Below are positions 2,983-40,449 of a DNA stretch of 64,000 nt, piece by piece. A program made the position numbers and the translations under genes. The notes beneath the pieces are model-generated. The model did not search any database and had not been told where the DNA came from. It saw only the letters and a program-made list of their open reading frames with translations. Each line of letters begins with the position of its first letter. The stretch's first letter is position 1. This DNA comes from an uncultured Alphaproteobacteria bacterium (GTDB lineage Bacteria; Pseudomonadota; Alphaproteobacteria; Rs-D84), in NCBI GenBank assembly GCA_944389265.1, contig CALXLS010000002.1:177349-241348 (forward strand), given 5' to 3'.

Positions 2983-3120
2983 AAAACCCACCCTACATAA
3001 ATTATTATTGATTTTATCAAATGAAGAGTTTGTGTGCAAGCACATAAAAACAACTTGCAATATTTTATTAAAAATAATATTATAAGCACTGTAATTTTTA
3101 AGTAAATTCTGAGGATAATT

Positions 3121-3375
3121 ATGGCAAAAGATGATGTAATTGTTTTTAGCGGCACAGTGGAAGACAAACTTCCCAACACAATGTTTCGCGTAAAACTAGA
3201 AAACGGTCATGAAATTTTAGCAACCGTATGTGGCAAAATGCGCAAGGCTCGCATATGGGTAAACGTTGGCGAAAAAGTTCGTGTAGAAATGACGCCATAC
3301 GACTTAGACAAAGGCAGAATAACATTTGTTGAACGCAATCGCACAACAGGTGATTCAACCGGAAACGCAATATAA
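3121..3375 (+). CDS. infA: Translation initiation factor IF-1
   Basis: 84 aa, [42 protein letters not shown]...[12 protein letters not shown] is the canonical IF-1 S1-like sequence. GAGGATAATT SD sits before the ATG. Confidence 0.93.
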
Positions 3376-3379
3376 AATT

Positions 3380-3401
3380 CTGCCCAAAGGCAGGATTTTT
3401 T
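3380..3401 (+). terminator. Rho-independent terminator after infA
   Basis: CTGCC-caaa-GGCAG hairpin followed by a T6 tract. Confidence 0.6.
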
Positions 3402-3479
3402 CTTATTAAAAAAGCATATATTTTTTAAATATTCCTTTCCTTAAAAATATATTTTTGTTATCATACTTAAAAGATAAGG

Positions 3480-6047
3480 ATGAAAAAGTTTTTGCTTTTT
3501 GTACTAGCGTATAGCATAGGCATCGGCTGTGTCGATGCTGCTGTTCGTGGCACAGAAACTATAAACAGAAACCCAAAAGATTCAGGCGTTACTACAGTTA
3601 TTGCGCGTGCCGCGACAAACGCGTCTGCAACCACCCAAGGACAAAGCCAAACAAACAGAACGACAACGAATACAACTACACGTGATACAGGCAATACAAT
3701 TTCCAGAACAACAACTGCAAAAAACATTACTCAATCTAACGTTTCACGCAACGCAACCACAGCCCGCAGCACATCTAATACAGCGCAATCATCGACTTCG
3801 CGGAATGCAGCGAACAATTCTGTTGTAAGAACAACAGCAACACCTAGGAAAACAGTAACTCCCTCTGCGCGTTCTGCACTAACTCCTGGTCGCGCATCTA
3901 CGATATCGACATCATCAACGAATACATTTGGAACAAGTTATAATTCATGTCGCGATGCATATTTCACATGCATGGATCAGTTTTGTGCGAACGCAAATGA
4001 CTCTTATCGTCGCTGTGTTTGTTCTTCTCGTCTTTCCGAAATACAGGAAAAGGAACGTGCTTTATCCCAAAGCGCAAATCAAATCCAAGATTTCAAAGAT
4101 TTAAATCTAGAAGTAATACCTAAAACTGCCGAGGAAGTAAAAGCGATGCTTTCCGCAACAGAAGGTGAAAATGCTATAAAATCAGACAATTCTGCATCTG
4201 CCCAGAAATTAGCAGGTATAAGTGATGTATTATCATCAACAAAATCAAAATCCTTATCCACCCTAGGTACTCTGGACATCGCCGGTGATATAAATCAGAT
4301 ATGGGCAACAACGGATCTAGCATCAGGTGAAAACATCATAAATTTAACGGGTGAATCTCTTTACAATGCGGTTCATGCACAATGTGCAGAACTGGTATCT
4401 GGGAACTGTACATCAACAGCAACCTTTAATATGGTTGTATCAGCTTATGGTATGTACATTGAAAACGACTGCACAACATTGGCAAATGCGCTTGATAAAA
4501 GTTTAAACCAAGCAAACAGTACCATACGCGATACAGAACGTGAAATGAACATGGCACGTCTTGACAATTATAATGCACATAATTCTACTTCCATAAACGA
4601 TTGTATTGCTCAGGTTCGTAAAGACATAACAGCAGATAACGCATGTGGTGAAGATTACGTACACTGCCTGGATATAACAGGTCGATATTTAAATCGTGAA
4701 ACGGGTGAACCAATTTACACCCAAGATTTTTATCAATTAGAAGCGCAAACCTCTTTAAGTGGTGATATATTAACAAATCCGACAAACCGCATGCTTGTTG
4801 CAGAATTAAATCGGAAACGTAGTTTTGCAGAACGCGGTCTAGAAACATGTCGTGATATTGCCGATGAAGTATGGGATGAATTTATGCGTCAAGCAATTAC
4901 AGAAATCTATCAAGGTCAGCAAGAAAAAATCAGAAACGTAAAGAACGAATGTTTAGACGTTGTAAACGCATGCTATGACGAACAAAGTGAATCATTAAAA
5001 GACTTTACAAACATAAAAGAAGAATTGCTATTAGGTTCTCGTTTGGAACTATCAGAAGAACTATGCCAAGAAAAACTATATGCATGCAGCAACCTATACG
5101 GGGATCCAAATGGTAATGGTTTAGAATTACTAATAACCGCCATGCATAACATAACCGACCAAAAAATTGCCCAAGAATGCGCCACATTGTTAAAAGAATT
5201 TGCAATTGATATGTGCGCTGTACCAAGCAATGACAGTTTACATTCATATCCTTATGGTTGTCGTGTTTATGCTCCGGGTGATCAAATTTATGCGTCTAAT
5301 TGGTTCTGCAACCAATTACAATGGTCGTCTAACAATAATTCTGAATCAACGACACAACCTACAAATCCGCCTGTCACACCTACAAAAGGATATATATGTC
5401 CTTCATATAAGAAATATACATCTTGTAATATTGGTTATTACCTTGCGACAAAGAATACATCTGGGGAATGGGTGCACAATGCCAATCCAGTTCCGGGCAA
5501 TTCTTGTATAGCCTGTCCTGCCAACGCACAATGTCCTGGTGGAACAAAAGCCCCAATTGGTGAATCCTTCGACCAAGAAGGAATTGACTGTGGTACAGAC
5601 TATGCAGGAAGTTTGTACCAGAAGGTAGTAAAATATGCGACCCAGGTATGTATACGTCCTTCAGATTTAGAAGAAATTACTGCAGGTAAAAAAGATATAC
5701 CAACCACAGTTTTAGAAGACGTTAATGTTGTAATGGATTCAATTCGTGTAGAAATGGCAAAGGTATTATCTGCAGAATGCGAACGCCTTGGTGGTGTATG
5801 GGTTGATACGCAATGGATAGACACGAAGCATCCGAAAGACGCTGATTCTGACATAACGACACGTGCCCCAAGTGACTTAATAGAAGGCTCTGATAACATA
5901 CACGATATAACCGGACATATATTATACAAATATTTCTATGACGAAACTGGTGCTAATACAAAATGGGGATATTGCGCAGATAAAGAGCAAATGACAGCAA
6001 CAGAAGAAGATGAAAAAGAAGGAACTAATAACACCACAGGTGAATAA
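3480..6047 (+). CDS. Secreted cysteine-rich coiled-coil protein (paralog family), 855 aa
   Basis: Signal peptide MKKFLLFVLAYSIGIGCVDAA. A long Thr/Ser/Asn/Arg-rich low-complexity N-terminal region precedes the motif SCRDAYFTCMDQFCANANDSYRRCVCSSRLSEIQEKER, a coiled-coil, and a C-terminal region with >30 Cys. Confidence 0.8.
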   Translation: MKKFLLFVLAYSIGIGCVDAAVRGTETINRNPKDSGVTTVIARAATNASATTQGQSQTNRTTTNTTTRDTGNTISRTTTAKNITQSNVSRNATTARSTSNTAQSSTSRNAANNSVVRTTATPRKTVTPSARSALTPGRASTISTSSTNTFGTSYNSCRDAYFTCMDQFCANANDSYRRCVCSSRLSEIQEKERALSQSANQIQDFKDLNLEVIPKTAEEVKAMLSATEGENAIKSDNSASAQKLAGISDVLSSTKSKSLSTLGTLDIAGDINQIWATTDLASGENIINLTGESLYNAVHAQCAELVSGNCTSTATFNMVVSAYGMYIENDCTTLANALDKSLNQANSTIRDTEREMNMARLDNYNAHNSTSINDCIAQVRKDITADNACGEDYVHCLDITGRYLNRETGEPIYTQDFYQLEAQTSLSGDILTNPTNRMLVAELNRKRSFAERGLETCRDIADEVWDEFMRQAITEIYQGQQEKIRNVKNECLDVVNACYDEQSESLKDFTNIKEELLLGSRLELSEELCQEKLYACSNLYGDPNGNGLELLITAMHNITDQKIAQECATLLKEFAIDMCAVPSNDSLHSYPYGCRVYAPGDQIYASNWFCNQLQWSSNNNSESTTQPTNPPVTPTKGYICPSYKKYTSCNIGYYLATKNTSGEWVHNANPVPGNSCIACPANAQCPGGTKAPIGESFDQEGIDCGTDYAGSLYQKVVKYATQVCIRPSDLEEITAGKKDIPTTVLEDVNVVMDSIRVEMAKVLSAECERLGGVWVDTQWIDTKHPKDADSDITTRAPSDLIEGSDNIHDITGHILYKYFYDETGANTKWGYCADKEQMTATEEDEKEGTNNTTGE

Positions 6048-6105
6048 CAAAGTCATCTTGATAAAGGAATAAAAATTTGATAAAATAAAAGAACAAGAGA
6101 GAAAA

Positions 6106-6810
6106 ATGAAAAAAATATTTGCAGTTTCTTTGATAAGCATACTCGCATCAAACGGCGCAAATGCTGCAATCAATTGGTGGGAAAGACCGACAGTTTGTCG
6201 TTTAGATCCAACTGACTGCTATACCAGCATGGGTACAGGATACGACAGCGAAATGTGGGATGCAAACAGTGAATGTTGGGGTATGAAATTAATCTGCCCA
6301 GAAGCACTAAAACGCGAAGAATACCAACCTGTTCCTATGGGGAAAACAGAAATTGCAAAAGGTACAGAAATCAAACAAGATTTCAACACTGATATATTAA
6401 ATGGTGATTGTTTTGGTGTAAGAAAAACAACATCTAATGGAACCATGGCATCTGTTGATGGAGAATATGTAAAAGTTTGGTGTAACGGCATACTAGAAAA
6501 CCCAGATGAATTTTTAACTAACGGTGAAATAACTTATGGTACACAACCAACCTGTTCTGACTTAGCAGAATATGGTTACGTTGGTATTGTAAACAATCGC
6601 TGTTACGGGAAATATTACGACGCATCAGAATATTTTATTGAATGTGAAGGTGATGATTTATTACCAAGTCGCATAATCTTATTAAATGGTGCCGACTATA
6701 ATGCACCATCTGGTAATGCACCTGCAGACAAATCCGCAGCAGATAAAATATTCGATCAAATGGAATCTGTATCAGAAACGCAAAGACAAAAATATTTTGA
6801 CAAAGACTAA
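6106..6810 (+). CDS. Small secreted cysteine-rich protein (234 aa)
   Basis: Signal peptide MKKIFAVSLISILASNGANA. Twelve or more Cys are spaced through the protein. Terminator hairpins follow directly. Confidence 0.7.
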   Translation: MKKIFAVSLISILASNGANAAINWWERPTVCRLDPTDCYTSMGTGYDSEMWDANSECWGMKLICPEALKREEYQPVPMGKTEIAKGTEIKQDFNTDILNGDCFGVRKTTSNGTMASVDGEYVKVWCNGILENPDEFLTNGEITYGTQPTCSDLAEYGYVGIVNNRCYGKYYDASEYFIECEGDDLLPSRIILLNGADYNAPSGNAPADKSAADKIFDQMESVSETQRQKYFDKD

Positions 6811-6819
6811 AAATATTAC

Positions 6820-6848
6820 AGGAGGCAACAAAGCCTCCTTATTTTATT
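6820..6848 (+). terminator. Rho-independent terminator
   Basis: AGGAGGC-aacaaa-GCCTCCT hairpin followed by TATTTTATT. Confidence 0.6.
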
Positions 6849-6910
6849 CTGCCGTAACATCATACCGGATATTTTACCTCAATAAAAATAATTAACTAAT
6901 TTTTCATATA

Positions 6911-6940
6911 AAAATCCCCCAACTGGGGGATTTTATTTTG
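6911..6940. terminator. Bidirectional terminator between convergent genes
   Basis: AAAA-TCCCCC-aact-GGGGGA-TTTTATTTT. An A-tract and a T-tract flank a 6-bp GC stem. The element sits between the + gene ending at 6810 and the - gene ending at 6948. Confidence 0.65.
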
Positions 6941-6947
6941 GTTATTT

Positions 6948-9900
6948 TTAGAAATTATATCTGAACTTCAACATACCTGTCTGAGAAGTGTAATCTTCAT
7001 GCAAGTCTAAGTCATAGTTCAACGATACTTCTACACCCTTATAGTTTGCAGTCAAACCGATACCGAATTCACCACCCAAGCGAGACAGACGTTTACTGTC
7101 AACAATGTATGATGCGGCACCAGGCATTGTGACTGTTGCGATTGCTTCATCAGACAATACGTCATATGTAGCTGCCGCACGCAATTCTGGACGCAAACTT
7201 AAACCTTTTTCTGTATCGATATCAAAGACATACTTTACACCTGCGACACCTGTCAAGTAATCTGTATCGCCAACTTTGATATCTGCCAAGCCGTTATTAT
7301 AGTCGTCTTGAGAGATATGTAAGTAGCGAACACCTGCTTCTGGTGTCAAACCATTTGCAAAGTCATAACCACCCATGACCTGACCACCGAAAGATGTGAC
7401 ATCATATTCAGAGTTAACTTCAACACCGAATGCATTTGTCGTTTCTGTATAGTCCGCCATTGTGTAGTTCAATGCAGCATTTACATACCACTGTGCTGGT
7501 TTATACTGACCATATACGAATATGCTGTTGCTTTCAATATCTGTATCACGAGCATTTTCTGCGTGAACATCTGTTGAGTTATAAGCATAACCGATACCAA
7601 TTGTATAATCACCATCAATCAATGCATCTGCACCGACAGCGACTCCACGAGTATAACCATCGAATTGACCGTTCAGTTTAGATTTATTGAACAGCCCCTG
7701 CGCCCATACACCATAATCTGCATTTGCTAAATCACCACCACTACGTCCAACATTTGCATTACCGGACATACGACCAGAAGCCAAGGACAAGACCTGATTC
7801 TGAACTGATGTAGCGACAGAATGAGTAACAGGTTTATCATCTGCTTTCAACTTTGCAGATTCTGCTTCAACATATTCTGTATTACCTTCTGCCAAAGCCT
7901 GCTGAGCTACCAACGAAGCTATTCCCATTTCATAGCTATCGCTATTTGCTAATCCTGCCAATACACCTGCTGTATCTACTGCCAAGTTTGTTGCGGCTGC
8001 AATTTCTTCGACAGCTTTTGTTTCAACTACGATAGCACTGCCATCCATAGAAACATTATACAAAGCATCATTTGCATTGATTGTCAGATTAGCAATTTCA
8101 AGGTCTTCATCTACAAAGATGTTATAGACCCCAGTTGCACCTATATTCAATGTAAGTTCTGCGGAATCACCAACCGTCAAGTCACCGACCAATTTACCGT
8201 AAGACTGAGAGTTTACGATAGAAGCAGCAACATTACCATTGATGTTCATTGTACCCTGATTGATTGTGTTAGCACCGATATTCAGAGTAGCCCCTTCGTT
8301 CAAACTCAAAGAACCTGTACCTGTGATACCGCCACCAATGATGGTTGTGCCATCAGCAAAAGTCAAGGAACCTAAGTTGTGGATATCATTTGCGACACCT
8401 GCTGCAGTATTACCTGCGAAAACGTTATCACCTTGGAAAGTCAAATTGCCTTTTGTGTCGTTATAAACTGCACCACCGAATTCACCAGAAGTGTTATTCG
8501 TAAATGTTACATTTTTCAATGTTGCAGTCTGCCCTTCATAACCCACTGCAGAATTTATATTGGCAAACGCGCCACCTTTTTTACCGGCTTTATTTCCATC
8601 GAATAAAACACCGTCAATCATACCGATTTTACCAGCATTTGTAATAGCACCACCCTGTTGCACTACACCTGTCAAAGCAGTATTATTTATGAACGCCGCA
8701 TTTTCGATTTTTTCAACCGTATCTATCTGCCCAAGTGTACCGTTCCACAAAGCACCACCATTACCCCCCTGATTATATTCAAAGACAGTATCAGTAATAC
8801 TTGTTATAACACCCTGGTTTCTGATAGCGCCACCATTTGAAGCGATATTACCATAGAAATAAGAATCAGAAATAGAATTAATTGTTCCTTGTCCTAAATC
8901 AGGCAGATTAGCATTGTTTATTGCACCACCATTTGCAGAATAGTTATTCTGGAAACGCATGCCCTTTAATTCAGCAATATTACCAGAATTATACAATGCA
9001 CCACCTGCATTATCTGCACGGTTTGCATAGAACGTTGTATTTTCTGCTAATGTTAATTCGCCATCATTAAATATAGCACCACCAAAACCGCTTACATGGT
9101 CTTCTGATTGTGCCGCATTATTTACAAAGTGCCCTGTGATATTTGCAGTTCCTTTGTTATACAAAGCACCACCATAAACCTTTCCGGTATTAGAGAAAGC
9201 CAAGTTATTCTGGAAATTACCTTTTGCAGTAAATGTGCCTTCATTATAAACAGCACCACCTTGTGCGGTTGTCACATTTGTTGTAACGCTGTTTCCACCG
9301 AAATTACCTTCTACATCAACTGTTGCATTTTTACCACTTGCTTCTTTGATAGAAATAGCACCACCTGTAGAAGTTTTTGCTATATCTTTATTATCTGTCA
9401 CGGCAACAACTTTATTATTTATAAAGTCGCCTGTGATTTTATCAATAGAAACATCTGTGTTTGGTCCCGCTTTGATATAAATAGCACCACCATTCGCATA
9501 AGCATCACCAGTTGCACTATTATTTACAAAGTTACCATTAATGGAACCGATTTTTGTTGTATCACCAGTTGCCCATTTACCTTCGATATGAATCGCGCCA
9601 CCCCCAGCAGAAACTAACTTATCCTGAGAAACCATTTCATCAGAATAATCTTTGTCTTCACCGACAATTTCTGCGATTGCTGCGTTACCAACAAAATTAC
9701 CTGTGATACTTTCTATTGTACTTTGATACAAAGCCAACGCACCACCGTTTGCGGTTGCTTTACTTGCAGTTTCTGATTTAGTATGTGCAGTATTATTAGA
9801 AAAATCGCCTGTAACAGCACCAATTTCACCAAAATTATAAATAGCACCACCTTGTGCATAAACGTCATCGGTCAAAGAGGCTTTTGCATCTTTATAAGCT

Positions 9901-10781
9901 TCCGCTTTATTACCTTGGAACAAGACATTTGAAACATCAGCTATCTTACCAGTTTCATCATTAAATATAGCACCACCTGTCTTAGCAGAATTTCCTACAA
10001 ACTTAGTATTTTCTGCAATATTCAATGTGCCCTTATTATAAATAGCCCCACCTGCATTAGCTGAATTGCTTTCAAATAAAGAATTTGCACCGATATTTAC
10101 AGTATTATAAAAATCTGTTTTATCTTCTGCTTTATCATTATTTAAATTAGCAATCGCACCACCACGATTAGCAGCGGTATTTCCTTTGAACACAGATTGA
10201 CCAAGTGTTAAATTACTTCCAACAGTCACCCCATTTGATTTATCTGTCCAAATTGCGATTGCGCCACCATCTGCTTCTGTTGAATTTTTTTCAAACAGAG
10301 CGCCATCACCCATAACAAAATTTTCGGCGGCTTCAATTCCTAAAGCACCGCCTAACCATTTAGAAGAATTGCCTTTAAACACAGTATTCTTTCCGAAAGA
10401 AATATTTCTATCAGAATCTTCTGTTTCTGGAATCTTTACATATAAACCACCAGACATCTTATTAGATGTATTTCCTTCAAACGTCCAACCGTCACCTGCT
10501 GTAAACCCATTTAATGCCTTCATAGCACCACCAGAATTTACAGAAGAATTATTTTTAAAGGTTACATTATTAGCGCCATTCTTCGACAAAGAATCACCGT
10601 AACTTATGGTCAAAGCACCTGCCCTTTCATCAGCTACTTCATTCTTTTGATTTTCGAATACTTGACCTTCTTGAATATCAACAACCGCGGCCTTTGCAGA
10701 AGTCAGACCAACGGTAGAAATCATGCCACATACTGCAAAAACAGGCAGTACAGAGCATGCTTTAAGTAGTTTATTAGACAT
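6948..10781 (-). CDS. Pmp-like (polymorphic membrane protein-type) autotransporter/adhesin, 1277 aa
   Basis: Signal peptide MSNKLLKACSVLPVFAVCGMISTVGLTSAKA. More than 20 GGA[ILV] repeats (GGAIYN, GGALYN, GGAIFN...) are interleaved with FxxN motifs (FVGN, FQGN, FINN, FTNN). The C-terminal ~300 aa have beta-barrel character and end in ...MLKFRYNF. A strong AAGGAGAAAGT SD sits before the ATG. Confidence 0.85.
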   Translation of the reverse strand: MSNKLLKACSVLPVFAVCGMISTVGLTSAKAAVVDIQEGQVFENQKNEVADERAGALTISYGDSLSKNGANNVTFKNNSSVNSGGAMKALNGFTAGDGWTFEGNTSNKMSGGLYVKIPETEDSDRNISFGKNTVFKGNSSKWLGGALGIEAAENFVMGDGALFEKNSTEADGGAIAIWTDKSNGVTVGSNLTLGQSVFKGNTAANRGGAIANLNNDKAEDKTDFYNTVNIGANSLFESNSANAGGAIYNKGTLNIAENTKFVGNSAKTGGAIFNDETGKIADVSNVLFQGNKAEAYKDAKASLTDDVYAQGGAIYNFGEIGAVTGDFSNNTAHTKSETASKATANGGALALYQSTIESITGNFVGNAAIAEIVGEDKDYSDEMVSQDKLVSAGGGAIHIEGKWATGDTTKIGSINGNFVNNSATGDAYANGGAIYIKAGPNTDVSIDKITGDFINNKVVAVTDNKDIAKTSTGGAISIKEASGKNATVDVEGNFGGNSVTTNVTTAQGGAVYNEGTFTAKGNFQNNLAFSNTGKVYGGALYNKGTANITGHFVNNAAQSEDHVSGFGGAIFNDGELTLAENTTFYANRADNAGGALYNSGNIAELKGMRFQNNYSANGGAINNANLPDLGQGTINSISDSYFYGNIASNGGAIRNQGVITSITDTVFEYNQGGNGGALWNGTLGQIDTVEKIENAAFINNTALTGVVQQGGAITNAGKIGMIDGVLFDGNKAGKKGGAFANINSAVGYEGQTATLKNVTFTNNTSGEFGGAVYNDTKGNLTFQGDNVFAGNTAAGVANDIHNLGSLTFADGTTIIGGGITGTGSLSLNEGATLNIGANTINQGTMNINGNVAASIVNSQSYGKLVGDLTVGDSAELTLNIGATGVYNIFVDEDLEIANLTINANDALYNVSMDGSAIVVETKAVEEIAAATNLAVDTAGVLAGLANSDSYEMGIASLVAQQALAEGNTEYVEAESAKLKADDKPVTHSVATSVQNQVLSLASGRMSGNANVGRSGGDLANADYGVWAQGLFNKSKLNGQFDGYTRGVAVGADALIDGDYTIGIGYAYNSTDVHAENARDTDIESNSIFVYGQYKPAQWYVNAALNYTMADYTETTNAFGVEVNSEYDVTSFGGQVMGGYDFANGLTPEAGVRYLHISQDDYNNGLADIKVGDTDYLTGVAGVKYVFDIDTEKGLSLRPELRAAATYDVLSDEAIATVTMPGAASYIVDSKRLSRLGGEFGIGLTANYKGVEVSLNYDLDLHEDYTSQTGMLKFRYNF

Positions 10782-10881
10782 ACTTTCTCCTTTAGTAAAT
10801 TTTATTTTGGGCCTTCTGTACCAAAAAGCCTATCATACCTAGGACTATCGTCAACAAAAATATTTTTGATAATAATCCTAT

Positions 10882-11119
10882 AAAAAACCGCCAAGGAAAT
10901 GGCGGTCGGGGAGTTAAGAAAATCACCCAAAAGTATGACCCCGCCAGTTTTCGGGATACCCTATTTTATAACTGACGGCTCCCCGACCTGATACGGGGTT
11001 CAGAGACAATAAATGGCGCAAATCCGCGCCGTATATCATCCCTACATCTCAGCATAAAAAAACTTATGCTGCTTTTGGGTTGGCTTTCTTACGGCCCGAA
11101 ACCACATCCCTGTGGATTC
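10882..11119 (-). ncRNA. Structured ~235-nt leader/ncRNA, copy A; unclassified riboswitch- or attenuator-like element upstream of the Pmp-like autotransporter
   Basis: Its own promoter is TTGTCT-16-TATAAT (complement 11126-11153). Conserved blocks are shared with copy B at 15170-15405. The RNA ends in terminator ACCGCCA-uuuccu-UGGCGGU plus U6 at 10882-10906. Details are in the findings. Confidence 0.6.
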
Positions 11120-11125
11120 ATAAAA

Positions 11126-11153
11126 ATTATACGAAAAGCACATAAAAAGACAA
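11126..11153 (-). promoter_or_regulatory. Sigma70-like promoter for RNA copy A
   Basis: On the minus strand: TTGTCT, a 16-nt spacer, then TATAAT. The predicted TSS is ~11119, at the AUG that opens the conserved 5' hairpin. Confidence 0.5.
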
Positions 11154-11205: not shown

Positions 11206-11279
11206 TGGGGCATAGTTTAACGGTAGAACTCCGGACTCTGACTCCGTCAGTGTTGGTTCGAATCCAGCTGCCCCAACCA
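11206..11279 (+). tRNA. tRNA-Gln (anticodon CUG)
   Basis: Cloverleaf folded by hand. Acceptor stem TGGGGCA/TGCCCCA with a U1:A72 pair, typical of tRNA-Gln. D-arm GTTT/GAAC. Anticodon loop CTCTGAC. T-arm GTTGG-TTCGAAT-CCAGC. Encoded CCA. An upstream TTGATT...TATATA promoter-like sequence is present. Confidence 0.8.
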
Positions 11280-12686: not shown

Positions 12687-13772
12687 ATGCAAAAGAAGAA
12701 CTTGATTTTTAGCCTGGCGGTCATCATGACATTGACCAGCGCAACAGTGGCCGATGCTTGTACAGGCATCACCCTGAAATCCAAAGACAATGGCGTTGTA
12801 GTTGCAAGAACAATTGAATGGGGTGAATCCGAAATGGAAAACCTTTATGTAATTGTTCCGCGCAATCATATTCAACAATCTATGCTACCTGACGGTGATT
12901 CTGGTGGTATGACATTTTCCAGCATGTATGGATACGTCGGCTTGGCCGTTGTCGAACCAGGTTGGGTTGTTGACGGTATGAACGAAGCGGGTCTGTCTGC
13001 CGCCCTATTCTATTTTCCAGGCTATGGTCAATATCCGAAATACAATCCTGCGAACAAGGGGAAAACAATATCAGACTTTCAGTTAGTATCTTGGATATTA
13101 TCAAGATTTTCAACCATAGACCAAGTAAAAGCCGCAATTCAAAATATTGATGTTGTGGGCATCTATCCAAACGCATCAACTGCACACTGGCGCGTAACAG
13201 ATTCTACCGGCCGACAAATAGTTATAGAAATTGTTGAGGGTAAACCACAAATCTACGAAAACGAATTGGGGGTTTTAACTAACTCGCCCAATTTCCCATG
13301 GCAAATTAAAAACCTAAACAATTATGTAAATCTTATGCCAGGAACAGCAGGTCCTGTAAAAATGGGTGGTATAACGCTTTCCGCATTCGGCGCAGGTAGT
13401 GGCATGCTTGGTCTTCCTGGTGATATGACCCCACCTTCCCGATTCGTTCGTGCTTCTTTCTTCCAGACATACTCTATCCAGCAAGACACTTCATACGATT
13501 CCGCAATGCTAGCATTTCATATACTAAATAACTTTGATGTTCCACTTGGCACAGAATTCCCTGTTGGCAAAGCACCTGTTGATATGCCTTCTGCGACCCA
13601 ATGGACAATTGCAACAGATATGAAAGACAGAGTTATATATTATCACACGATGTATAACAGGACGATTCGTTCTATTGATATGGACAAGATAGATTTTGCA
13701 AATGTACCATTTCAATCTGCACCGCTTGATGAAACGAAGCAAGAAACAATCATTCCGATACAAATTCGTTGA
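12687..13772 (+). CDS. Secreted Ntn-hydrolase of the choloylglycine hydrolase / penicillin V acylase (linear amide C-N hydrolase) family
   Basis: Signal peptide MQKKNLIFSLAVIMTLTSATVADA, immediately followed by Cys (CTGITLKSKDNGVVVARTIEWG...), the N-terminal nucleophile arrangement of this family. The ORF-track start at 12651 is a GTG. The ATG at 12687 is preferred. Confidence 0.7.
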   Translation: MQKKNLIFSLAVIMTLTSATVADACTGITLKSKDNGVVVARTIEWGESEMENLYVIVPRNHIQQSMLPDGDSGGMTFSSMYGYVGLAVVEPGWVVDGMNEAGLSAALFYFPGYGQYPKYNPANKGKTISDFQLVSWILSRFSTIDQVKAAIQNIDVVGIYPNASTAHWRVTDSTGRQIVIEIVEGKPQIYENELGVLTNSPNFPWQIKNLNNYVNLMPGTAGPVKMGGITLSAFGAGSGMLGLPGDMTPPSRFVRASFFQTYSIQQDTSYDSAMLAFHILNNFDVPLGTEFPVGKAPVDMPSATQWTIATDMKDRVIYYHTMYNRTIRSIDMDKIDFANVPFQSAPLDETKQETIIPIQIR

Positions 13773-13776
13773 ACAA

Positions 13777-13805
13777 ACGTCGCACAAAAGCGACGTTTTT
13801 ATTTA
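13777..13805 (+). terminator. Rho-independent terminator
   Basis: AACGTCGC-acaaaa-GCGACGTT followed by TTTTATTT. Confidence 0.7.
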
Positions 13806-13865
13806 TAAAGTTTGCTTTTTTAGTCTTTCAGACTATAATCTCTTTTACATAAAAGGAGAAATTCT

Positions 13866-15104
13866 ATGAAAATAAAACCTTTTGCAGGTGTACGTCCACC
13901 AAAAGAACTTGCAGCAGAAGTCGCATCCCGCCCTTACGATGTTTTGAACTCTGTAGAAGCCAAAGCCGAAGCTGGTGAAAAATCTTTATTGCATATTATT
14001 AAACCGGAAATAGACTTTGATCCGATTGCCGATGAACATAGTCAGCAAGTTTACGATAAGGCCGTAGAAAACTTTAAACTGTGGCAAGAACGTGGTTGGT
14101 TAGTTCAAGACTCCAAAGAAATGTATTATATATATGCGCAAACTATGGACGGACGCACTCAATATGGTCTAGTTGCAGCAGCAAATGTCGAAGACTATAT
14201 GACAGGGAAAATCAAAAAGCATGAATTAACCCGTAAAGATAAAGAAGAAGACAGAATGATTCATGTCAGAATTCAAAATGCAAACATAGAACCAGTTTTC
14301 TTCGCCTATCCTGATGTTGCAGAAATGAATGACATAGTAAAAAACTATGTAGAAAAACACGAACCAGAATATGACTTCGTTGCAGCAGATGGTTTTGGTC
14401 ATAAATTCTGGGCAATTACAGATGACGCTATAAACAATCGCATTACAGAAATCTTCAAAGAAATTCCTGCAATGTATGTTGCAGACGGTCACCACAGAAC
14501 TGCCGCTGCTGCGCTGGTAGGTGAAGAAAAGCGCAAAGCAAACCCAAATCATACAGGCAACGAAGAATATAATTATTTCTTGGCGGTTATTTTCCCAGAA
14601 AGCCAATTAAAAGTTATAGACTATAACCGCGTTGTAAAAGATTTGAATGGTTTAACATCCGCAGAATTTTTAGAAAAACTTTCAGAATCTTTTGAAGTTG
14701 AAGAAAAAGGCACAGAAATATACAAGCCTAACAAATTACATAACTTTGGGATGTATTTAGACGGGAAATGGTATTCACTAACCGCGAAACCAGGAACATA
14801 TAACGACAATGACCCTATCGGTGTTTTAGATGTGACAGTACTATCTAACTTAGTATTTGATAAAATACTGGACTTAGGTGACTTGCGCACCAGCAAAAGA
14901 ATTGACTTTGTGGGTGGCATTCGTGGTCTGGGTGAACTACAAAAGCGCGTAGATTCAGGCGAAATGGTTGCAGCATTTGCACTGTATCCTGTGACAATGC
15001 GTCAGATAATAGACATTGCAGATACGGGTAATATTATGCCACCAAAGACAACATGGTTTGAACCGAAATTACGTAGTGGTTTAGTAATACACAAACTATC
15101 ATAA
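13866..15104 (+). CDS. DUF1015-family protein (412 aa)
   Basis: MKIKPFAGVRPPKELAAEVASRPYDVLNSVEAKAEAG...YVADGHHRTAAA matches the conserved DUF1015 N-terminal signature and the ADGHHR motif. Length is typical. AAAGGAGAAATTCT SD. Confidence 0.75.
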   Translation: MKIKPFAGVRPPKELAAEVASRPYDVLNSVEAKAEAGEKSLLHIIKPEIDFDPIADEHSQQVYDKAVENFKLWQERGWLVQDSKEMYYIYAQTMDGRTQYGLVAAANVEDYMTGKIKKHELTRKDKEEDRMIHVRIQNANIEPVFFAYPDVAEMNDIVKNYVEKHEPEYDFVAADGFGHKFWAITDDAINNRITEIFKEIPAMYVADGHHRTAAAALVGEEKRKANPNHTGNEEYNYFLAVIFPESQLKVIDYNRVVKDLNGLTSAEFLEKLSESFEVEEKGTEIYKPNKLHNFGMYLDGKWYSLTAKPGTYNDNDPIGVLDVTVLSNLVFDKILDLGDLRTSKRIDFVGGIRGLGELQKRVDSGEMVAAFALYPVTMRQIIDIADTGNIMPPKTTWFEPKLRSGLVIHKLS

Positions 15105-15109
15105 CAAAC

Positions 15110-15132
15110 AGCCCCCTTACTGGGGGCTTTTT
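15110..15132 (+). terminator. Rho-independent terminator
   Basis: AGCCCCC-ttact-GGGGGCT followed by TTTT. Confidence 0.7.
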
Positions 15133-15134
15133 CA

Positions 15135-15163
15135 TTGACATAAAAAGCAAAAATAAATATAAT
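15135..15163 (+). promoter_or_regulatory. Consensus sigma70 promoter for RNA copy B
   Basis: TTGACA (15135-15140), a 17-nt spacer, then TATAAT (15158-15163). Predicted TSS ~15170. Confidence 0.6.
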
Positions 15164-15169
15164 TAAAAT

Positions 15170-15405
15170 AAATCAATGGGGACATTGGTTTGGGGCTGTA
15201 GCAAGCCTTTCTACAAGCGGTATTTTATACCGGATCCGCGTATATAAGCGGTGCACATATGCACCTTTTCTTGTATCCCCGTACTGCGAAAGGTCGGGGA
15301 GCCGCCTGCCATAAAACAGGGATTCCCCGAAAGCAGTGCGGAATCAATCTTGTAGATGATTTGCTAACTCCCCGACCGCCATCAAGTCCTTGTTGGCGTT
15401 TTTTA
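15170..15405 (+). ncRNA. Structured ~235-nt leader RNA, copy B. Unclassified riboswitch- or attenuator-like element fused to the 5' end of the cysteine-rich secreted protein gene at 15428.
   Basis: Homologous to copy A, with covarying helices. It ends in terminator CGCCAUCAAGUCCUUGUUGGCG plus U6 (15377-15404). The downstream start codon is only 22 nt beyond the U-tract, with no promoter in between, so gene expression requires read-through. Confidence 0.6.
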
Positions 15406-15427
15406 ACAATCCAGGAAGGCCGAAATC

Positions 15428-16378
15428 ATGAAAAAATTTATAACCTCTGTACTTTACACGACAATATGTATATTTGCATATTTCCCGGCGAACGCAGAAC
15501 TTTGTTGTATTGTAAATGACATGTTCGTTGGAAAATGCCCAACAGCAGAAGACCTTGATTGGGGTTCTGCCGCACCAGATCCAAAATGCATTTGCACAGC
15601 TGGGGTTCCACCTCTTTGCAAAATGACAGAAATTTTTAGTCGGTGTCCAGATGGGACCGTTGCGGGTCAATATATAAAAGACTGCACCTGTACAGAATGC
15701 CAAAGTGGTGGTGGCGGAACAGGTGGTGGCTCACTATTACCATGTACTGCATGTGATGAAGTTGGTTGGCAAAGTAACGGCACAGGCTATGAAATTAAAA
15801 AAACAGGCGGGACATGCAGCGGCAACACAAGTTCATATCACGGTACCTGCAAAGGTCAAACAATAGAATATCGGTGTGCACCTGGTTATTGTGGTACAAC
15901 AACTGACGGTAAAACAGGTTGCGTCAAAGCAGATTATGAAGATTTTTTGGTAAACTGTAGAGTTATAGACAAATTCGAAAACGAATGCCCTTCTGGTGTT
16001 ACTAATTGCATATGTACAAATACATACCCCAAAATATGCACCGTACTTGATATATTTGATACCCCGCCTTCCTGGGCACAAAATTACTTTTGTGGAACGA
16101 ATTATTGGGTTAGTACAGCAACAGGTCACGAACAGAACAAAATAGTAAATATCGAAGGAGAATCTTGCACATCCTTCTCTCAATCCTATAGATGCTCTGC
16201 CGGCTATTACGGTTCTACAACGAATGGAACTTCTGGTTGTTCAAAATGTCCTATACCTGGTACAAGTCTTGCCGGACAAAATTCCGCCATTGGTCAGTGT
16301 TATATTCCATCAAACACCCCTCAAACCGACACAACAGGGCAATATATATACAGCTTAAATTGTTATTATACGAACTAA
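15428..16378 (+). CDS. Secreted cysteine-rich protein (316 aa)
   Basis: Signal peptide MKKFITSVLYTTICIFAYFPANA. AGGAAGG SD. About 40 Cys, with CC and CxC doublets and a GGGGTGGG linker. Preceded by RNA copy B. Confidence 0.75.
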   Translation: MKKFITSVLYTTICIFAYFPANAELCCIVNDMFVGKCPTAEDLDWGSAAPDPKCICTAGVPPLCKMTEIFSRCPDGTVAGQYIKDCTCTECQSGGGGTGGGSLLPCTACDEVGWQSNGTGYEIKKTGGTCSGNTSSYHGTCKGQTIEYRCAPGYCGTTTDGKTGCVKADYEDFLVNCRVIDKFENECPSGVTNCICTNTYPKICTVLDIFDTPPSWAQNYFCGTNYWVSTATGHEQNKIVNIEGESCTSFSQSYRCSAGYYGSTTNGTSGCSKCPIPGTSLAGQNSAIGQCYIPSNTPQTDTTGQYIYSLNCYYTN

Positions 16379-16409
16379 AAATCCGCCGGTTGGCGGATTT
16401 TTATTTTGA
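16377..16409. terminator. Bidirectional terminator between 15428-16378 (+) and grpE (-)
   Basis: AAAA-ATCCGCC-ggt-TGGCGGAT-TTTTATTTT. Confidence 0.7.
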
Positions 16410-16949
16410 AACTACTACGATTGCTGTACGCAAAACAGTATCTCCGAACATATACCCCGGTTGCATTTCTTCAACTATCGTATTAGATATTAACTTTTTT
16501 CCGTTTTCTTCTGGCACTTCAACGACCTGGATAGCATTATGATATTGCGGGTTTAAAACCTTACCTAAAGATTCTATTTTAGTTATACCGATTTGAGTAA
16601 AAGCACTTTCCATCGCAAGAGCCATCGACTTAATACCCTCATCATCAGGATTTAATTTCAAAGCCGCTTCAACAGCATCCATTACAGGCAAAAACTTTTT
16701 AGCGACAGACATCGCCCTATTACGTGCACTAGATTCTGCATCCAAAGCCGCACGACGACGAGTATTTTCTAACTCTGCCGCCAGACGCAAATATTTATCA
16801 TTTAAATCAGAAAGTTTAGCAGTTAATTCAGCAACTTCTTTATCAGAATCTTTACTATTATCAATGGGTTCTGCTATTTTTTCTTCAGTTTCTTTATTTT
16901 CAGTATCAGAAATTGATACTTCGTCTACTTTTACTTCTTTTTCTTCCAT
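16401..16949 (-). CDS. grpE: Nucleotide exchange factor GrpE
   Basis: 182 aa. Acidic N-terminus, then LNDKYLRLAAELENTRRRAALDAE...FLPVMDAVEAAL and a C-terminal beta-domain ...MQPGYMFGDTVLRTAIVVVSK. Typical GrpE. Confidence 0.9.
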   Translation of the reverse strand: MEEKEVKVDEVSISDTENKETEEKIAEPIDNSKDSDKEVAELTAKLSDLNDKYLRLAAELENTRRRAALDAESSARNRAMSVAKKFLPVMDAVEAALKLNPDDEGIKSMALAMESAFTQIGITKIESLGKVLNPQYHNAIQVVEVPEENGKKLISNTIVEEMQPGYMFGDTVLRTAIVVVSK

Positions 16950-17012
16950 GCCAAAACCTATTTTAAATCAAATCGGGGGCGGCGGATTACACCCCCGAAA
17001 ACCACTATATAA

Positions 17013-17717
17013 TTATTTCACACTTGTTATTATAGGTATGAAGTCGTCAGGTTTCAAGGATGCCCCACCAACTAAAACCCCATCAACATTTGGAATAGAC
17101 ATAATTTCTGCTGCATTTGTAGCTTTTACGCTTGCCCCATACAAAACAGGTGTTCCATACAATCCCATATTATTTAAAGTATCTGCTATTAATTTATGTG
17201 CTTCTGCAATTTCTGCTTCTGTCGGTGTCAAACCAGCACCAATTGCCCAACGAGGTTCATAAGCAACTATAATATCTTGATTAACATCACTTGGTATAGA
17301 TTCACGAACTCCAGATTCTATAACCGCCATTGTCTTGCCCGCTTGTTTTTCTTCCATAGTTTCACCGACACAAATTATAGGTGTCAACCCTGCACTCAAC
17401 GCCAACTCTGCTTTCTGACGAACAATGTCATTTGTTTCTTCATGGTATTGACGGCGTTCACTATGTCCAACGATAACATATTTTGCACCAGTCTCCGCAA
17501 TCATTGCCGCAGAAATTTCACCCGTATAAGCACCTTTTTCGTGTGCGCTAACATCCTGTGCACCCAAAGAAACCTTGCCAGAATTAAGCCCCAACATTGT
17601 ATAAGGAACACATAAAATAACCTTATTCTCTGTATCTACATTTTGCAAAGCATCTACCATTTCTTTTAATGCGGTACGAGTTCCATTCATTTTCCAGTTT
17701 CCAGCAATAAATTTCAT
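17013..17717 (-). CDS. tpiA: Triosephosphate isomerase
   Basis: MKFIAGNWKMNGT...VILCVPYT...VIVGHSERR...AYEPRWAIGAG are TIM hallmarks. The start is placed at the internal ATG with AAGGGG SD. The 66-codon N-terminal extension in the ORF track is rejected. Confidence 0.9.
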   Translation of the reverse strand: MKFIAGNWKMNGTRTALKEMVDALQNVDTENKVILCVPYTMLGLNSGKVSLGAQDVSAHEKGAYTGEISAAMIAETGAKYVIVGHSERRQYHEETNDIVRQKAELALSAGLTPIICVGETMEEKQAGKTMAVIESGVRESIPSDVNQDIIVAYEPRWAIGAGLTPTEAEIAEAHKLIADTLNNMGLYGTPVLYGASVKATNAAEIMSIPNVDGVLVGGASLKPDDFIPIITSVK

Positions 17718-17785
17718 TGATTTTCCCCTTTTTTTCATTGATTTTTCTGATATCGTTTTGCTATGGTATCGCAAAAGGGGATTAA

Positions 17786-19198
17786 ATGCTAGAATATTTA
17801 CGTAATGCAGCAGATAAACCTGTTGCAAAAATTTTAATTGGAATTTTGGCTTTTTCGTTTGTTGGCTGGGGTGTTGCTGAATGGATTTTTGGTAGTGTTG
17901 CAGGAGATACAACACTTGTACGTGTTGGCAATGCAGAAATAACCATGCAACAATTCAACTTGGAAAAAGCACGCGAATTGTCAAATATGACCCGCGAACA
18001 GCAGCGCGCATTTTATTCAGACCCAGTTTCTGTCCAAGCTTTAAATGATAAGATTTTATCCAATCTTACAACACAAACCATGGCAGAAAATCGCGCAAAA
18101 GATTTAGGATTCTTTGTAACAGATTCAAAAATCGCCAATGAAATTCGTGAATTTCCGGAATTTCAATCAAACGGCGAATTTTCAACATACTTATTTGATA
18201 GCGTATTAGCCAACTCTGGTTATACAGAAGCAGATTTTGCAGATGTTTTACGTGGCCAAGTTTTGCGTTCTTATGTTCTTGGCGCGATGTCCTTACCAGT
18301 AAAAGTTCCAAATTTTGCTTTAACTGCCGCATATAATGCAAGATACAGTCAAAGACAAATAGATTATACAACAGTAAAATTCTCTGATTTCAAAGTAGGT
18401 GAACCTACAGAAGAACAATTAAAAGAGTTTTATGCGCAACATCCGCACGTAATTCCAGAACAAAGAACAGTATCATATGTATTAATTACTGCAGATATGG
18501 ATAAACCAGACAGTTATGATGAAGGTTATGAACAAGCGATTCGCGTAGAAGATGACATTATTGCTGGTGAATCAATGTCTGTCGCAGCAAACAAGAATAA
18601 AGCAAAATATATTTCTCTTGGGACATTCGGTGAAGGCAATCGTCCGGTTGATACCTTATTAACAGACCAGATGATGAACCGAATATTCTCAATGGATGAA
18701 GGGTTAGAGAGTGAAATTATCGAAACGAAAAAAGGTTTTGTAATTGTTCGCGTTGACAAGGTAATACCGTCACACAATGCAGAATTTTCATCTGTTAAAA
18801 AGAATATCACATCTGATTGGAAACGTGAAGAGCAACGTAAACAAGCATATCTTCGTGCGAATGAAATTTTGATAGACTTAAATCAAAACGGAAAACAAGA
18901 AGACAAAAAGACCGTTACCGTTTCCAGAACTTCTGGTGCTCCAACAGACGTCTTGGTTGCAACATTCAACTCAGAATTAAATACAAATTCAATTGTACCA
19001 GGTTCTGACGCATTTTACGTTTTGCACATAGAAAAAGAAATTGCACCAAAAACTGACACAAAAAAAATGGCAGATTTGCGCAAAGAATTGGAAAATATCT
19101 CTATGGAAGAAATTACAGATGACTACAATGCATTTCTGATTAGAGAATATCCAGTAAAAATAAATAAAAAAATATTTAACAGATTTTTCAATAAATAA
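17786..19198 (+). CDS. ppiD: Periplasmic chaperone / peptidyl-prolyl isomerase, PpiD-like (SurA-N-type)
   Basis: MLEYLRNAADKPVAKILIGILAFSFVGWGV has an N-terminal TM anchor like PpiD. Length is 470 aa. AAGGGG SD. Confidence 0.6.
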   Translation: MLEYLRNAADKPVAKILIGILAFSFVGWGVAEWIFGSVAGDTTLVRVGNAEITMQQFNLEKARELSNMTREQQRAFYSDPVSVQALNDKILSNLTTQTMAENRAKDLGFFVTDSKIANEIREFPEFQSNGEFSTYLFDSVLANSGYTEADFADVLRGQVLRSYVLGAMSLPVKVPNFALTAAYNARYSQRQIDYTTVKFSDFKVGEPTEEQLKEFYAQHPHVIPEQRTVSYVLITADMDKPDSYDEGYEQAIRVEDDIIAGESMSVAANKNKAKYISLGTFGEGNRPVDTLLTDQMMNRIFSMDEGLESEIIETKKGFVIVRVDKVIPSHNAEFSSVKKNITSDWKREEQRKQAYLRANEILIDLNQNGKQEDKKTVTVSRTSGAPTDVLVATFNSELNTNSIVPGSDAFYVLHIEKEIAPKTDTKKMADLRKELENISMEEITDDYNAFLIREYPVKINKKIFNRFFNK

Positions 19199-39895: not shown

Positions 39896-40273
39896 TTATT
39901 TACCCTTTACTGCGGAACCAGCAACTACAACGCGCTTACCCTTACGAGTACGAGCATTTGTCTGAGTACGCTGACCGCGAACCGGTAAACGGTTACGATG
40001 ACGAATACCGCGATATGTTTTCAAATCTTGCAAACGTTTAATATTCATTGCAACTTCACGGCGAACATCACCTTCTACTTTAAAGTTTTCTTCTATATAT
40101 TTAGAAATTTTAACAACTTCCTCATCAGTCAAGTCTTTCGCGCGCAGACCATCTTTCAATTTCAAAGCCCTGCAAATCTGAGCAGACTTTGCAGGTCCAA
40201 TACCATGAATGTATTGCAACGCGATTTCAATGCGCTTTTCTGTAGGAATGTTAACACCTGCTATACGTGCCAT
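39896..40273 (-). CDS. rpsM: 30S ribosomal protein S13
   Basis: [34 protein letters not shown]...[25 protein letters not shown] is canonical S13. Confidence 0.95.
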
Positions 40274-40449
40274 TTTTCATTTTCCTTTTTATTTATTGCG
40301 GAACATAATTTTATAAGTTCCGATACCAAACTCTTAAAAAACTGCCGTCAGATTTTCAAGAGTATTTTATTTTGCTGCATTATTTTATACAAAATGCTGC
40401 AAAAGTCAAATTTTGTTTTGCTTCTCATCAAGACACATAAAGACAATCT

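Follow-up and report, generated by a model that had tools for sequence, protein, structure and literature searches.

The RNA called copy B, which precedes a gene for a Cys-rich protein in the window (the whole 64-kb stretch of DNA that was analysed), probably attenuates transcription in cis by means of an antiterminator that is long-range and built into the RNA itself, as suggested by predicted folds and energies. Judged by nhmmer and covariance model (CM) matches, copy B is a member of a large, previously undescribed family of leader RNAs, and from its sequence and predicted junction this family is a distant, extended relative of sRNA-Xcc1. The fusion of promoter, RNA, terminator, SD and ATG is a family-wide trait.

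Copy B and its target gene

The features of copy B and of a second copy in the window, copy A, are collected in Table 1. The first-pass annotation had claimed that a TTGACA-17-TATAAT promoter at 15135-15163 drives the leader, and this was confirmed by the promoter scan, in which the copy B promoter was the sole perfect (12/12) match in 13000-18000. The DUF1015 gene upstream of copy B (13866-15104) is closed by its own terminator at 15110-15128; therefore, the copy B promoter opens a new transcription unit. The leader was predicted to fold with -99.2 kcal/mol (z = -5.2 relative to shuffled sequences).

Table 1. Positions of copy B, copy A and their target genes in the window.
Feature	Position	Strand	Remarks
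Copy B sigma-70 promoter	15135..15163	+	TTGACA 15135-15140, 17-nt spacer, TATAAT 15158-15163; 12/12 match
Copy B leader RNA, ~235 nt	15170..15404	+	Inferred TSS to U-tract end; nhmmer and CM matches to paralogs
H1, 5' hairpin UCAAUG-GGGA-CAUUGG	15173..15188	+	GNRA tetraloop; attenuator segments 1 and 2
Rod 5' strands	15190..15217	+	G1 15190-15195, LR1a 15199-15205, LR2a 15210-15217
Local hairpin H2	15194-15207	+	LR1a doubles as its loop
Variable inner hairpins	15218..15275	+	Predicted in MFE; length and sequence differ among paralogs
C1 (15276-15281) and G2 (15292-15301)	15276..15301	+	C1:G2 in fold X; G2:C2 in fold Y
Fold Y, sRNA-Xcc1-like three-way junction	15292..15385	+	P1 = G2:C2; P2 15302-15341; P3 15341-15362
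Conserved P2 loop AUAAAACA	15311-15318	+	
Rod 3' strands	15349..15377	+	LR2b 15349-15356, LR1b 15360-15366, C2 15368-15377
Predicted intrinsic terminator	15377..15404	+	Segments 3 and 4; stem-loop 15377-15398, U6 15399-15404
SD AGGAAGG and target ORF	15413..16378	+	SD 15413-15419, ORF 15428-16378
Copy A promoter	11126..11153	-	TTGTCT-16-TATAAT; 10/12 match
Copy A leader RNA	10882..11120 (about)	-	104 bits with family CM; RF02221 42.5 bits
Copy A H1	11102-11115	-	
Copy A rod 5' strands	11072-11099	-	
Copy A G2 and C2	10979-10988; 10904-10913	-	
Copy A terminator and U-tract	10886-10907; 10882-10887	-	Picked up by terminator scanner
Copy A target, 1277-aa autotransporter	6948..10781	-	Chlamydia-Pmp repeats; ATG at 10781

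The putative terminator hairpin of copy B has the sequence CGCCAUCAAG-UCC-UUGUUGGCG, with one U-U mismatch and a predicted energy of -8.3 kcal/mol. Its G+C-rich stem is directly followed by six U, as predicted for an intrinsic (Rho-independent) terminator, and the earlier description of a leader of ~235 nt with a U-tract ending at 15404 was found to be right. A simple terminator scanner overlooked this hairpin, probably because of the U-U mismatch. The distance from the end of the U-tract to the ATG at 15428 was 23 nt, not 22 nt as had been annotated; the SD AGGAAGG alone lies in between, as claimed. It had also been stated that no promoter fits between the terminator and the gene, and in 15164-15427 on the + strand the promoter scan gave no further match of at least 9/12.

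The target ORF encodes 316 aa and has, in agreement with its annotation as a Cys-rich secreted protein, many Cys residues and a signal-peptide-like N-terminus; no Pfam match was found for this protein. Considering that its orthologues in L006 and L007 lack the leader RNA, it could be concluded that the module is optional for the Cys-rich gene.

A family of leader RNAs in Rs-D84 bacteria

At least 95 copies of the RNA were found in Candidatus Enterousia-like (order Rs-D84) gut alphaproteobacteria. Rs-D84/Enterousia bacteria are uncultured, and their genomes of about 0.75-1.0 Mb encode many unexplained surface proteins (PMC12306168). The family is not in Rfam 15, and the literature searched gave no account of an RNA of this kind in Rs-D84 or Enterousia. 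In contigs with orthologues of the Cys-rich gene, the synteny was shared and the RNA recurred together with its promoter and terminator, and some of these contigs also carried strongly diverged paralogs of the RNA ahead of other genes. Fifteen distinct copies were detected by nhmmer in related contigs. Two size types were distinguished, a long one of ~235-285 nt and a short one of ~185-215 nt.

A CM was built on the 3' domain of the RNA. With this model, the 15 copies scored 58-105 bits and everything else at most 22 bits. Metagenomic copies were retrieved with a degenerate 26-nt pattern of which the terminator was not part. At least 120 metagenomic stretches matched the pattern, and among the matches listed, all 80 of 80 loci had a complete 3' domain including the terminator (56-104 bits). 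Taken together, 82 pattern-selected metagenomic and viral loci and the 15 contig copies scored 56-105 bits, compared with 22 bits for the best background match. The module was present in two viral contigs. The window contains exactly two copies in 64 kb, and a search with nhmmer and the CM gave no third one; one relative carries four copies in 13 kb. No copy was found by the same two methods in 68 Bacteroidales control loci.

When the whole window was scanned with Rfam at gathering thresholds, nothing was detected at the locus, and the hits were limited to tRNAs and Alpha_RBS. Permissive local Rfam scans (E up to 10) gave no match to a riboswitch model, and sRNA-Xcc1 alone fell below E = 0.01; the other families of Rfam 15 (GEMM-I/II, T-box, 6S etc.) had no match at the gathering score or at E < 0.01.

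Genes downstream of the RNA

A terminator was seen in every copy examined and a promoter in nearly all of them. About 90% of the copies are followed by a same-strand ORF that starts ~20 nt past the terminator. Flanking sequence was sufficient in 73 metagenomic copies. In these, the distance from the end of the model match, which falls a few nucleotides into the U-tract, to the next same-strand start codon had a median of ~21 nt and was 4-31 nt in 59 copies. Seven copies were 87-131 nt away from the start codon, and the one examined among these, L129, precedes a close homologue of the copy A autotransporter gene. A promoter match of at least 8/12 was present in 56 of 59 metagenomic copies at a fixed distance from the 5' end of the RNA, the -10 box ending 2-4 nt ahead of the trimmed RNA start and a few nucleotides upstream of H1. 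Five or more U were counted in the post-stem window (up to 10 nt) of 62 of the 67 RNAs compared; the few weak cases include L122 with its poor U-tract, GUCAACAUU. One copy, L008b, has kept its promoter, fold and terminator and has no downstream ORF.

According to a crude test, ~70% of the downstream proteins have signal-peptide- or TM-like N-termini; the function of these proteins is not known. The downstream genes encode secreted proteins, lipoproteins and autotransporters; among the remaining ~30% are a family-2 glycosyltransferase (Glycos_transf_2), a protein like RgpF, a C5 DNA methylase and a restriction enzyme of the GmrSD type. In one of the viral contigs the targets are moron-like lipoproteins, adjoining a terminase-like gene. 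No coherent set of genes that would indicate a ligand was found downstream. Given this mixture of targets, the regulon consists of accessory, surface and defence genes and does not follow one pathway.

Conserved helices and two core folds

The paralogs form the same helices despite great divergence in sequence. For helix statistics, 67 non-redundant RNAs of the long type were aligned by sequence only, and shuffled partners served as the control. H1 was canonical in 93% of cases versus 69% after shuffling, with 60 double-change cells, and LR1 in 94.6% versus 72.7%, with 112 double-change cells. For P2a and the terminator stem, the values were 98.5% versus 87.9% and 93.7% versus 84.1%, respectively. 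The loop of H1 was of the GNRA type in 57 of 75 copies. The LR2 and P2b columns were only about 51-53% canonical and were not registered by MAFFT. Because LR2 was too variable for alignment, it was tested sequence by sequence with chimeric controls. This helix has a mean length of 9 bp and 63 distinct 5' strands in the 67 RNAs; true partners scored 20.5 versus 9.8 for chimeras, and 2.8% of the chimeras were as good. In all, H1, LR1, LR2, P2 and the terminator are backed by chimera tests together with alignment statistics. The variation of helices by compensatory changes is a pattern at the level of RNA.

Two alternative folds were recognized in the core. In fold X, G1:C2, LR1 and LR2 form a long-range rod of ~22 bp that unites both ends of the RNA. 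Fold Y is the three-way junction of P1, P2 and P3. P1 and P2 covary in the unbiased MAFFT alignment, with double changes at 13 of 19 pairs; P3 is invariant within the long type, and its covariation is seen only between long and short types. Each fold has covariation of its own. In 14 RNAs a C of C2 is replaced by U, and in 12 of these 14 a G of G1 is replaced by A and G2 stays G, a pattern specific to fold X. The innermost pair of P1 is changed from A-U to U-A in six RNAs, a pattern specific to fold Y. In predicted energy, fold X is favoured over fold Y by 7-9 kcal/mol, and fold Y was absent from all MFE predictions. The 5' leader thus holds a conserved structured domain backed by covariation, a property expected of riboswitches.

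Pairing between the terminator and the 5' end

The rod is flanked directly by H1 on its 5' side and by the terminator on its 3' side. The loops of the two hairpins covary: GGGA in H1 goes with UCC in the terminator (24:7) and GAGA with UCU (12:1), with a Fisher p of 2.5e-5, which, like the Wilcoxon p-value given below, overstates independence because the sequences are phylogenetically related. The 5' strand and loop of H1 can pair with the loop and 3' arm of the terminator over at least 7 bp in 23 of the 67 RNAs; in copy B, L001 and L005a the pairing reaches 10 bp. It belongs to the global MFE structure of copy B, which therefore lacks the terminator hairpin and corresponds to the antiterminated form.

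The balance between the two arrangements was calculated with the rod enforced, comparing state T (H1 and terminator) with state E (extended 5'/3' duplex). For the 67 long-type RNAs the mean ddG(E-T) was -0.4 +/- 4.3 kcal/mol, a nearest-neighbour prediction without pseudoknots, tertiary contacts or kinetics, as are the other energies given here. For the 55 RNAs whose helices were assigned cleanly, the median ddG(E-T) was +0.9 kcal/mol for native combinations and +4.2 kcal/mol when the terminator module was swapped between paralogs. The native value was lower than the swapped one in 48 of the 55 (Wilcoxon p = 6e-9, related sequences). Each terminator therefore seems, in sequence and in predicted energy, to be matched to the 5' end of its own RNA at about equal stability, as regulated read-through requires.

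The order of folding was followed by MFE prediction for the growing chain of the same 55 RNAs. Before the 5' arm of the terminator had emerged, H1 was closed in 48 and the rod formed in 43. Once the 5' arm and loop of the terminator were out, H1 was closed in 10, and a mean of 7.7 nt of this arm and loop paired with the H1 region. In 47 of the full-length RNAs, both H1 and the terminator were formed. At the decision point H1 was open in 82% of native RNAs versus 63% of those with swapped terminators. Chimeras gave modestly lower scores for the pairing of H1 with the terminator (12.8 for native versus 10.9 for chimeric combinations). Part of this complementarity resides in conserved CCAA/UUGG-like motifs and not in covariation. 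The computed structures point to a platform in which terminator and antiterminator are mutually exclusive.

Several other ideas were considered and rejected. A local antiterminator was suggested by the P2 arms of copy A (CCGUCA/UGGCGG), which by eye resemble its terminator (CCGCCA/UGGCGG); the resemblance is not conserved, e.g., in L005c. An overlap between P1 and the base of the terminator was considered as a switch. It measures 3-4 nt in most copies and 1 nt in copy B, and for this reason it cannot be the main mechanism in copy B. A separate promoter of the gene between terminator and ATG was found in neither copy B nor copy A. A structure at the level of DNA, such as an attC-like site or a cruciform, was rejected in view of the strand-specific G-U pairs and of the constant co-orientation with promoter, U-tract and gene.

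Copy A

The first-pass annotation had placed copy A ~100 nt before the start of an autotransporter gene, and the distance from terminator to ATG was indeed 100 nt. The promoter scan gave no sigma-70 match in this spacer. A TTGACG-N11-TATGAT element conserved in spacers of the A type was considered as a promoter and discarded, its spacing being wrong for sigma-70. Because the spacer lacks a sigma-70 match, copy A probably works like copy B; of the two options offered earlier, similar action or a role as a stand-alone sRNA, the former is thus the probable one.

Comparison with known RNAs

The closest known RNA is sRNA-Xcc1 (RF02221). Like sRNA-Xcc1, the family shows a three-way junction in which P1 is G/C-rich, P2 contains an internal loop of the AUACAAUA...GAA type and P3 is a hairpin. 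The P1, P2 and P3 helices and the AUACAAUA-type loop were all recognized, and the model alignments span positions 1-87; the AUAMMAYA motif is conserved in the family. As in sRNA-Xcc1, the 3' strand of P1 leads directly into a CC(A/G)CC... hairpin. The RF02221 scores were 30.9 bits (E = 0.0024) for copy B, 42.5 bits for copy A and 38.4-48.8 bits for nine relatives, all below the gathering score of 53, so that no copy qualifies as a member of sRNA-Xcc1.

The genomic setting is also similar. On mobile DNA, sRNA-Xcc1 immediately precedes an accessory gene (symE, ORF6N) of the same orientation: in integron cassettes of Xanthomonas it was reported ahead of symE (bioRxiv 10.1101/2025.06.18.660453), and in an APSE phage it is found upstream of an ORF6N gene. 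The occurrence of the present family on viral contigs parallels this mobility.

In other respects the two RNAs differ. Northern blot and RACE revealed sRNA-Xcc1 as a discrete RNA of 88 nt (PMC2996969), whereas the junction makes up only the 3' half of an RNA of ~235 nt in the present family, which consequently does not share the 88-nt size. Nor do the loci appear to encode a discrete RNA of ~88 nt starting at P1: the conserved promoter lies ~125 nt upstream of P1, and the stretch in between is a conserved 5' domain that covaries with the 3' domain. This additional domain of ~120 nt (H1, G1, LR1a, LR2a, the inner hairpins and C1) has no counterpart in sRNA-Xcc1. It pairs with the P3 loop, the strand joining P3 to P1, and C2, and in this way creates a competing fold, unlike in sRNA-Xcc1. 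The host lineage (here Rs-D84) and the targets differ as well, and sRNA-Xcc1 is annotated as a trans-acting sRNA.

Classical attenuators, such as trp-type leaders and riboswitch platforms, resemble the present RNAs in having four segments that pair as 1:2 and 3:4 or as 2:3, in a leader ending just before the gene. Unlike in those systems, segments 2 and 3 are here ~190 nt apart and meet by means of the rod, 1:4 and loop:loop pairing lengthen the antiterminator, and neither a leader peptide nor a known effector was apparent. The terminated state, with the rod and with H1 and the terminator carrying complementary loops, recalls the tuning fork of purine riboswitches with their P1, P2 and P3 and L2-L3 contact. 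However, there is no similarity in sequence or model, one of the prongs is a terminator, and the RNA is three times larger. Second-messenger riboswitches, e.g., those of the c-di-GMP-I (GEMM-I) class, are likewise leaders with a terminator, located in multiple copies per genome ahead of unrelated genes for adhesins, surface proteins and secreted proteins. The present family differs from them in that no match to their Rfam models was obtained at the thresholds used and in that its targets include restriction-modification and glycosyltransferase genes.

Proposed mechanism and alternative explanations

The architecture of the module, its helices, the loop:loop pairing and the match of the terminator to its own 5' end emerge from the sequences and their covariation and suggest how copy B may work. 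Transcription would begin at its own sigma-70 promoter, and the ends of the RNA would be united by the rod of ~22 bp, which closes a multi-helix core. Two hairpins would then stand at the open end of the rod: H1, made of segments 1 (5' strand) and 2 (3' strand), and the terminator, made of segments 3 (5' arm) and 4 (3' arm). With 1:2 and 3:4 formed, the polymerase would halt at 15404, and the only product would be the RNA of ~235 nt. Re-pairing as 2:3 and 1:4 together with loop:loop contact would extend the rod as one duplex and abolish the terminator; with the rod zipped through 2:3, the polymerase would enter the SD and the Cys-rich gene. Since ~190 nt separate segments 2 and 3, which are brought together only by closure of the rod, the antiterminator would be a continuation of the rod.

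Formation of fold Y (G2:C2) would disrupt the G1:C2 end of the rod, part segments 2 and 3 and favour termination. Because fold Y would separate these segments, the level of read-through could be set by an effector that influences the core or H1; candidates are a ligand, a protein, the speed of the polymerase or the NTP level. This role of fold Y is conjectural. That termination and read-through both occur, which of the states is ON, how fold Y is coupled to the terminator and that there is an effector are points which we infer. The first-pass annotation had held that expression of the gene depends on regulated read-through. This claim is supported by the promoterless gene, the family-wide fusion and the matched alternative pairing, all of which are computational findings.

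Two alternatives would dispense with attenuation. With its own promoter and terminator, copy B could be a stand-alone sRNA of ~235 nt that acts in trans by base pairing or protein binding, the gene being expressed by incidental leak-through, or it could combine both functions. We consider this quite unlikely. It would accommodate the orphan copy L008b without a downstream ORF, the structures at full length with H1 and terminator in 47 of 55 RNAs, whose closed 5'/3' form suits a stable RNA, and the detection of the nearest Rfam family, sRNA-Xcc1, as a discrete RNA (PMC2996969). However, in ~90% of copies a same-strand, promoterless ORF with its SD lies no more than ~60 nt past the terminator at tight spacing, which an RNA acting purely in trans would not require, and sRNA-Xcc1 itself is directly upstream of, and co-oriented with, a symE or ORF6N gene. 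Moreover, the 3' half of the terminator is matched to the RNA's own 5' end in competition with the terminator, and LR1 and LR2, where variation is greatest, find their partners in cis and do not form a conserved seed. The other alternative, which we regard as very improbable, is a constitutive structured 5' UTR that stabilises or insulates the mRNA, in which the 3' hairpin serves as a kissing-loop partner of H1 and nothing is regulated. Complementary loops could indeed hold the two prongs of a tuning fork together as a static tertiary contact, U-tracts are poor in some copies, and the very mixed targets would fit a generic expression cassette. Against this, a GC-rich stem that runs straight into a U-rich tract, the signature of an intrinsic terminator, is present in most copies. 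A constitutive UTR would also leave unexplained the match between the H1 stem and the 3' arm of the terminator beyond the loops, the balance found in native combinations only, and the existence of two exclusive conserved folds of the core.

A small-molecule riboswitch would be a special case of an attenuator, in which the Xcc1-like junction core with its AUAMAAYA...GAAA internal loop is the aptamer and the ligand selects the fold. The large conserved fold with two GNRA loops, a sequence-conserved internal loop and covariation, and the two exclusive conserved folds combined with a terminator/antiterminator platform, would agree with such a switch. So would the many surface and secreted targets, which are typical of second-messenger riboswitch regulons, e.g., that of c-di-GMP. 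Nevertheless, no common pathway links the downstream genes (secreted proteins, lipoproteins, autotransporters, glycosyltransferase, RgpF, methylase, GmrSD and phage morons), and such a mixture argues against a pathway-specific metabolite riboswitch; no Rfam riboswitch model matched at E up to 10, and a single type of expression platform was seen. We judge this explanation unlikely, and the mixed targets speak to some degree against a riboswitch sensu stricto, a label that is not applied here because the regulon is not coherent. The first-pass annotation had spoken of a textbook riboswitch, a term that implies a small-molecule ligand; none is indicated here. The arrangement of a leader attenuator that this implies was found, but the mixed targets are unlike a metabolite regulon, and the antiterminator is long-range and not local.

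Attenuation through a long-range antiterminator, the explanation preferred for copy B, may extend further, and we put forward the following only tentatively. The family might represent a new class, hypervariable-rod 'zipper' attenuators, in which closure of the rod unites the 5' hairpin with the terminator. Such attenuators might be the main regulatory device for the accessory genes (surface proteins, glycan enzymes, defence) of reduced-genome Rs-D84 gut bacteria and their phages, with a single global signal as the trigger, for example a second messenger, contact with a host or partner, or an RNA-binding protein. In that case, sRNA-Xcc1 might be the minimal version of such a device and likewise work in cis, on symE or ORF6N, and not as a trans-acting sRNA.

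Significance

An antiterminator that is supplied by the transcript's own 5' end, and that can form only after ~200 nt have folded into a rod, would be an unusual coupling of global folding to termination. For sRNA-Xcc1, which is common on integrons, transposons and phages, the finding offers a reinterpretation that can be tested. One RNA module, set before a wide range of unrelated accessory genes, would amount to a compact regulatory system that spares protein, and it would define a ready-made regulon for the Rs-D84 lineage.

Additional copies of the leader RNA and their downstream genes

Further copies of the RNA family were found in contigs outside the window. In the related contig L005, four copies, two of the long type and two of the short type, lay within about 5 kb (2952-7770), and each was followed by a small secreted-protein gene, a different one in each case. 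An orphan copy with no ORF after it was found in a second related contig, L008; this RNA continues into the terminator of the convergently oriented Cys-rich gene. Its syntenic counterpart in L005 is followed by a gene (Table).

The family was also present on two predicted viral contigs from IMG/VR, L209 and L210. A terminase-like ORF was found near the L209 copy. After the terminator of this copy, an 82-aa ORF and two lipoprotein-like genes were located on the same strand, and a large GHKL-ATPase-like ORF was located on the opposite strand.

Table. Features of the window and of related loci
Feature	Location	Strand	Remarks
Cys-rich secreted protein gene	window 15428-16378	+
DUF1015 protein gene	window 13866-15104	+
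DUF1015 gene terminator	window 15110-15128		perfect bidirectional hairpin AGCCCCC-UUACU-GGGGGCU
tRNA gene	window 11206-11276	+	divergent from copy A promoter, ~50 nt away
Copy A terminator-to-SD spacer	window 10782-10881	-
Rfam Alpha_RBS (RF00140) match	window 40241-40350	-	43.2 bits, gathering score 38
Spacer of A-type copy	L018 about 3429-3530
Orphan RNA copy	L008 3070-3242	-	promoter, full fold, terminator intact
Syntenic counterpart of orphan copy	L005 7545-7765	-	192-aa gene follows
RNA copy, IMG/VR viral contig	L209 5257-5363	-	69.7 bits
RNA copy, IMG/VR viral contig	L210 4993-5105	+	76 bits

Surroundings of the two leader RNAs in the window

The family of the Cys-rich secreted protein encoded after copy B is very small: it comprises 26 relatives, almost all of them known from metagenome-derived assemblies only, and Pfam domains appeared among them only in a few weak partial matches. 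The protein appears to consist of two similar halves.

Upstream of copy B, the DUF1015 terminator hairpin ends only 6 nt short of the promoter's -35 box, so that the two transcription units adjoin with almost no gap. The DUF1015 protein was 86-93% identical to its homologues in other Enterousia-like genomes and 73-83% identical to those in Bacteroidales MAGs. The latter values are unusually high across phyla and suggest recent horizontal transfer of this gene within the gut community.

Alpha_RBS is the leader of the ribosomal-protein alpha operon, and its Rfam family was defined in gammaproteobacteria. Despite this definition, the match in the window looks ordinary.

Beside copy A lies a tRNA gene. 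Among the matches listed, tRNA genes also shared short contigs with many metagenomic RNA copies (L112, L127, L133, L142, L147, L150 and L165), which fits the insertion of accessory genes at tRNA loci.

The spacer of approximately 100 nt between the terminator and the SD sequence was kept in the A-type copies. By-eye comparison of this spacer in copy A and L018 revealed no sigma-70 match and a common small hairpin-like motif (CCUAGGUAUGAUAGG in copy A), possibly a further regulatory element peculiar to the autotransporter leaders.
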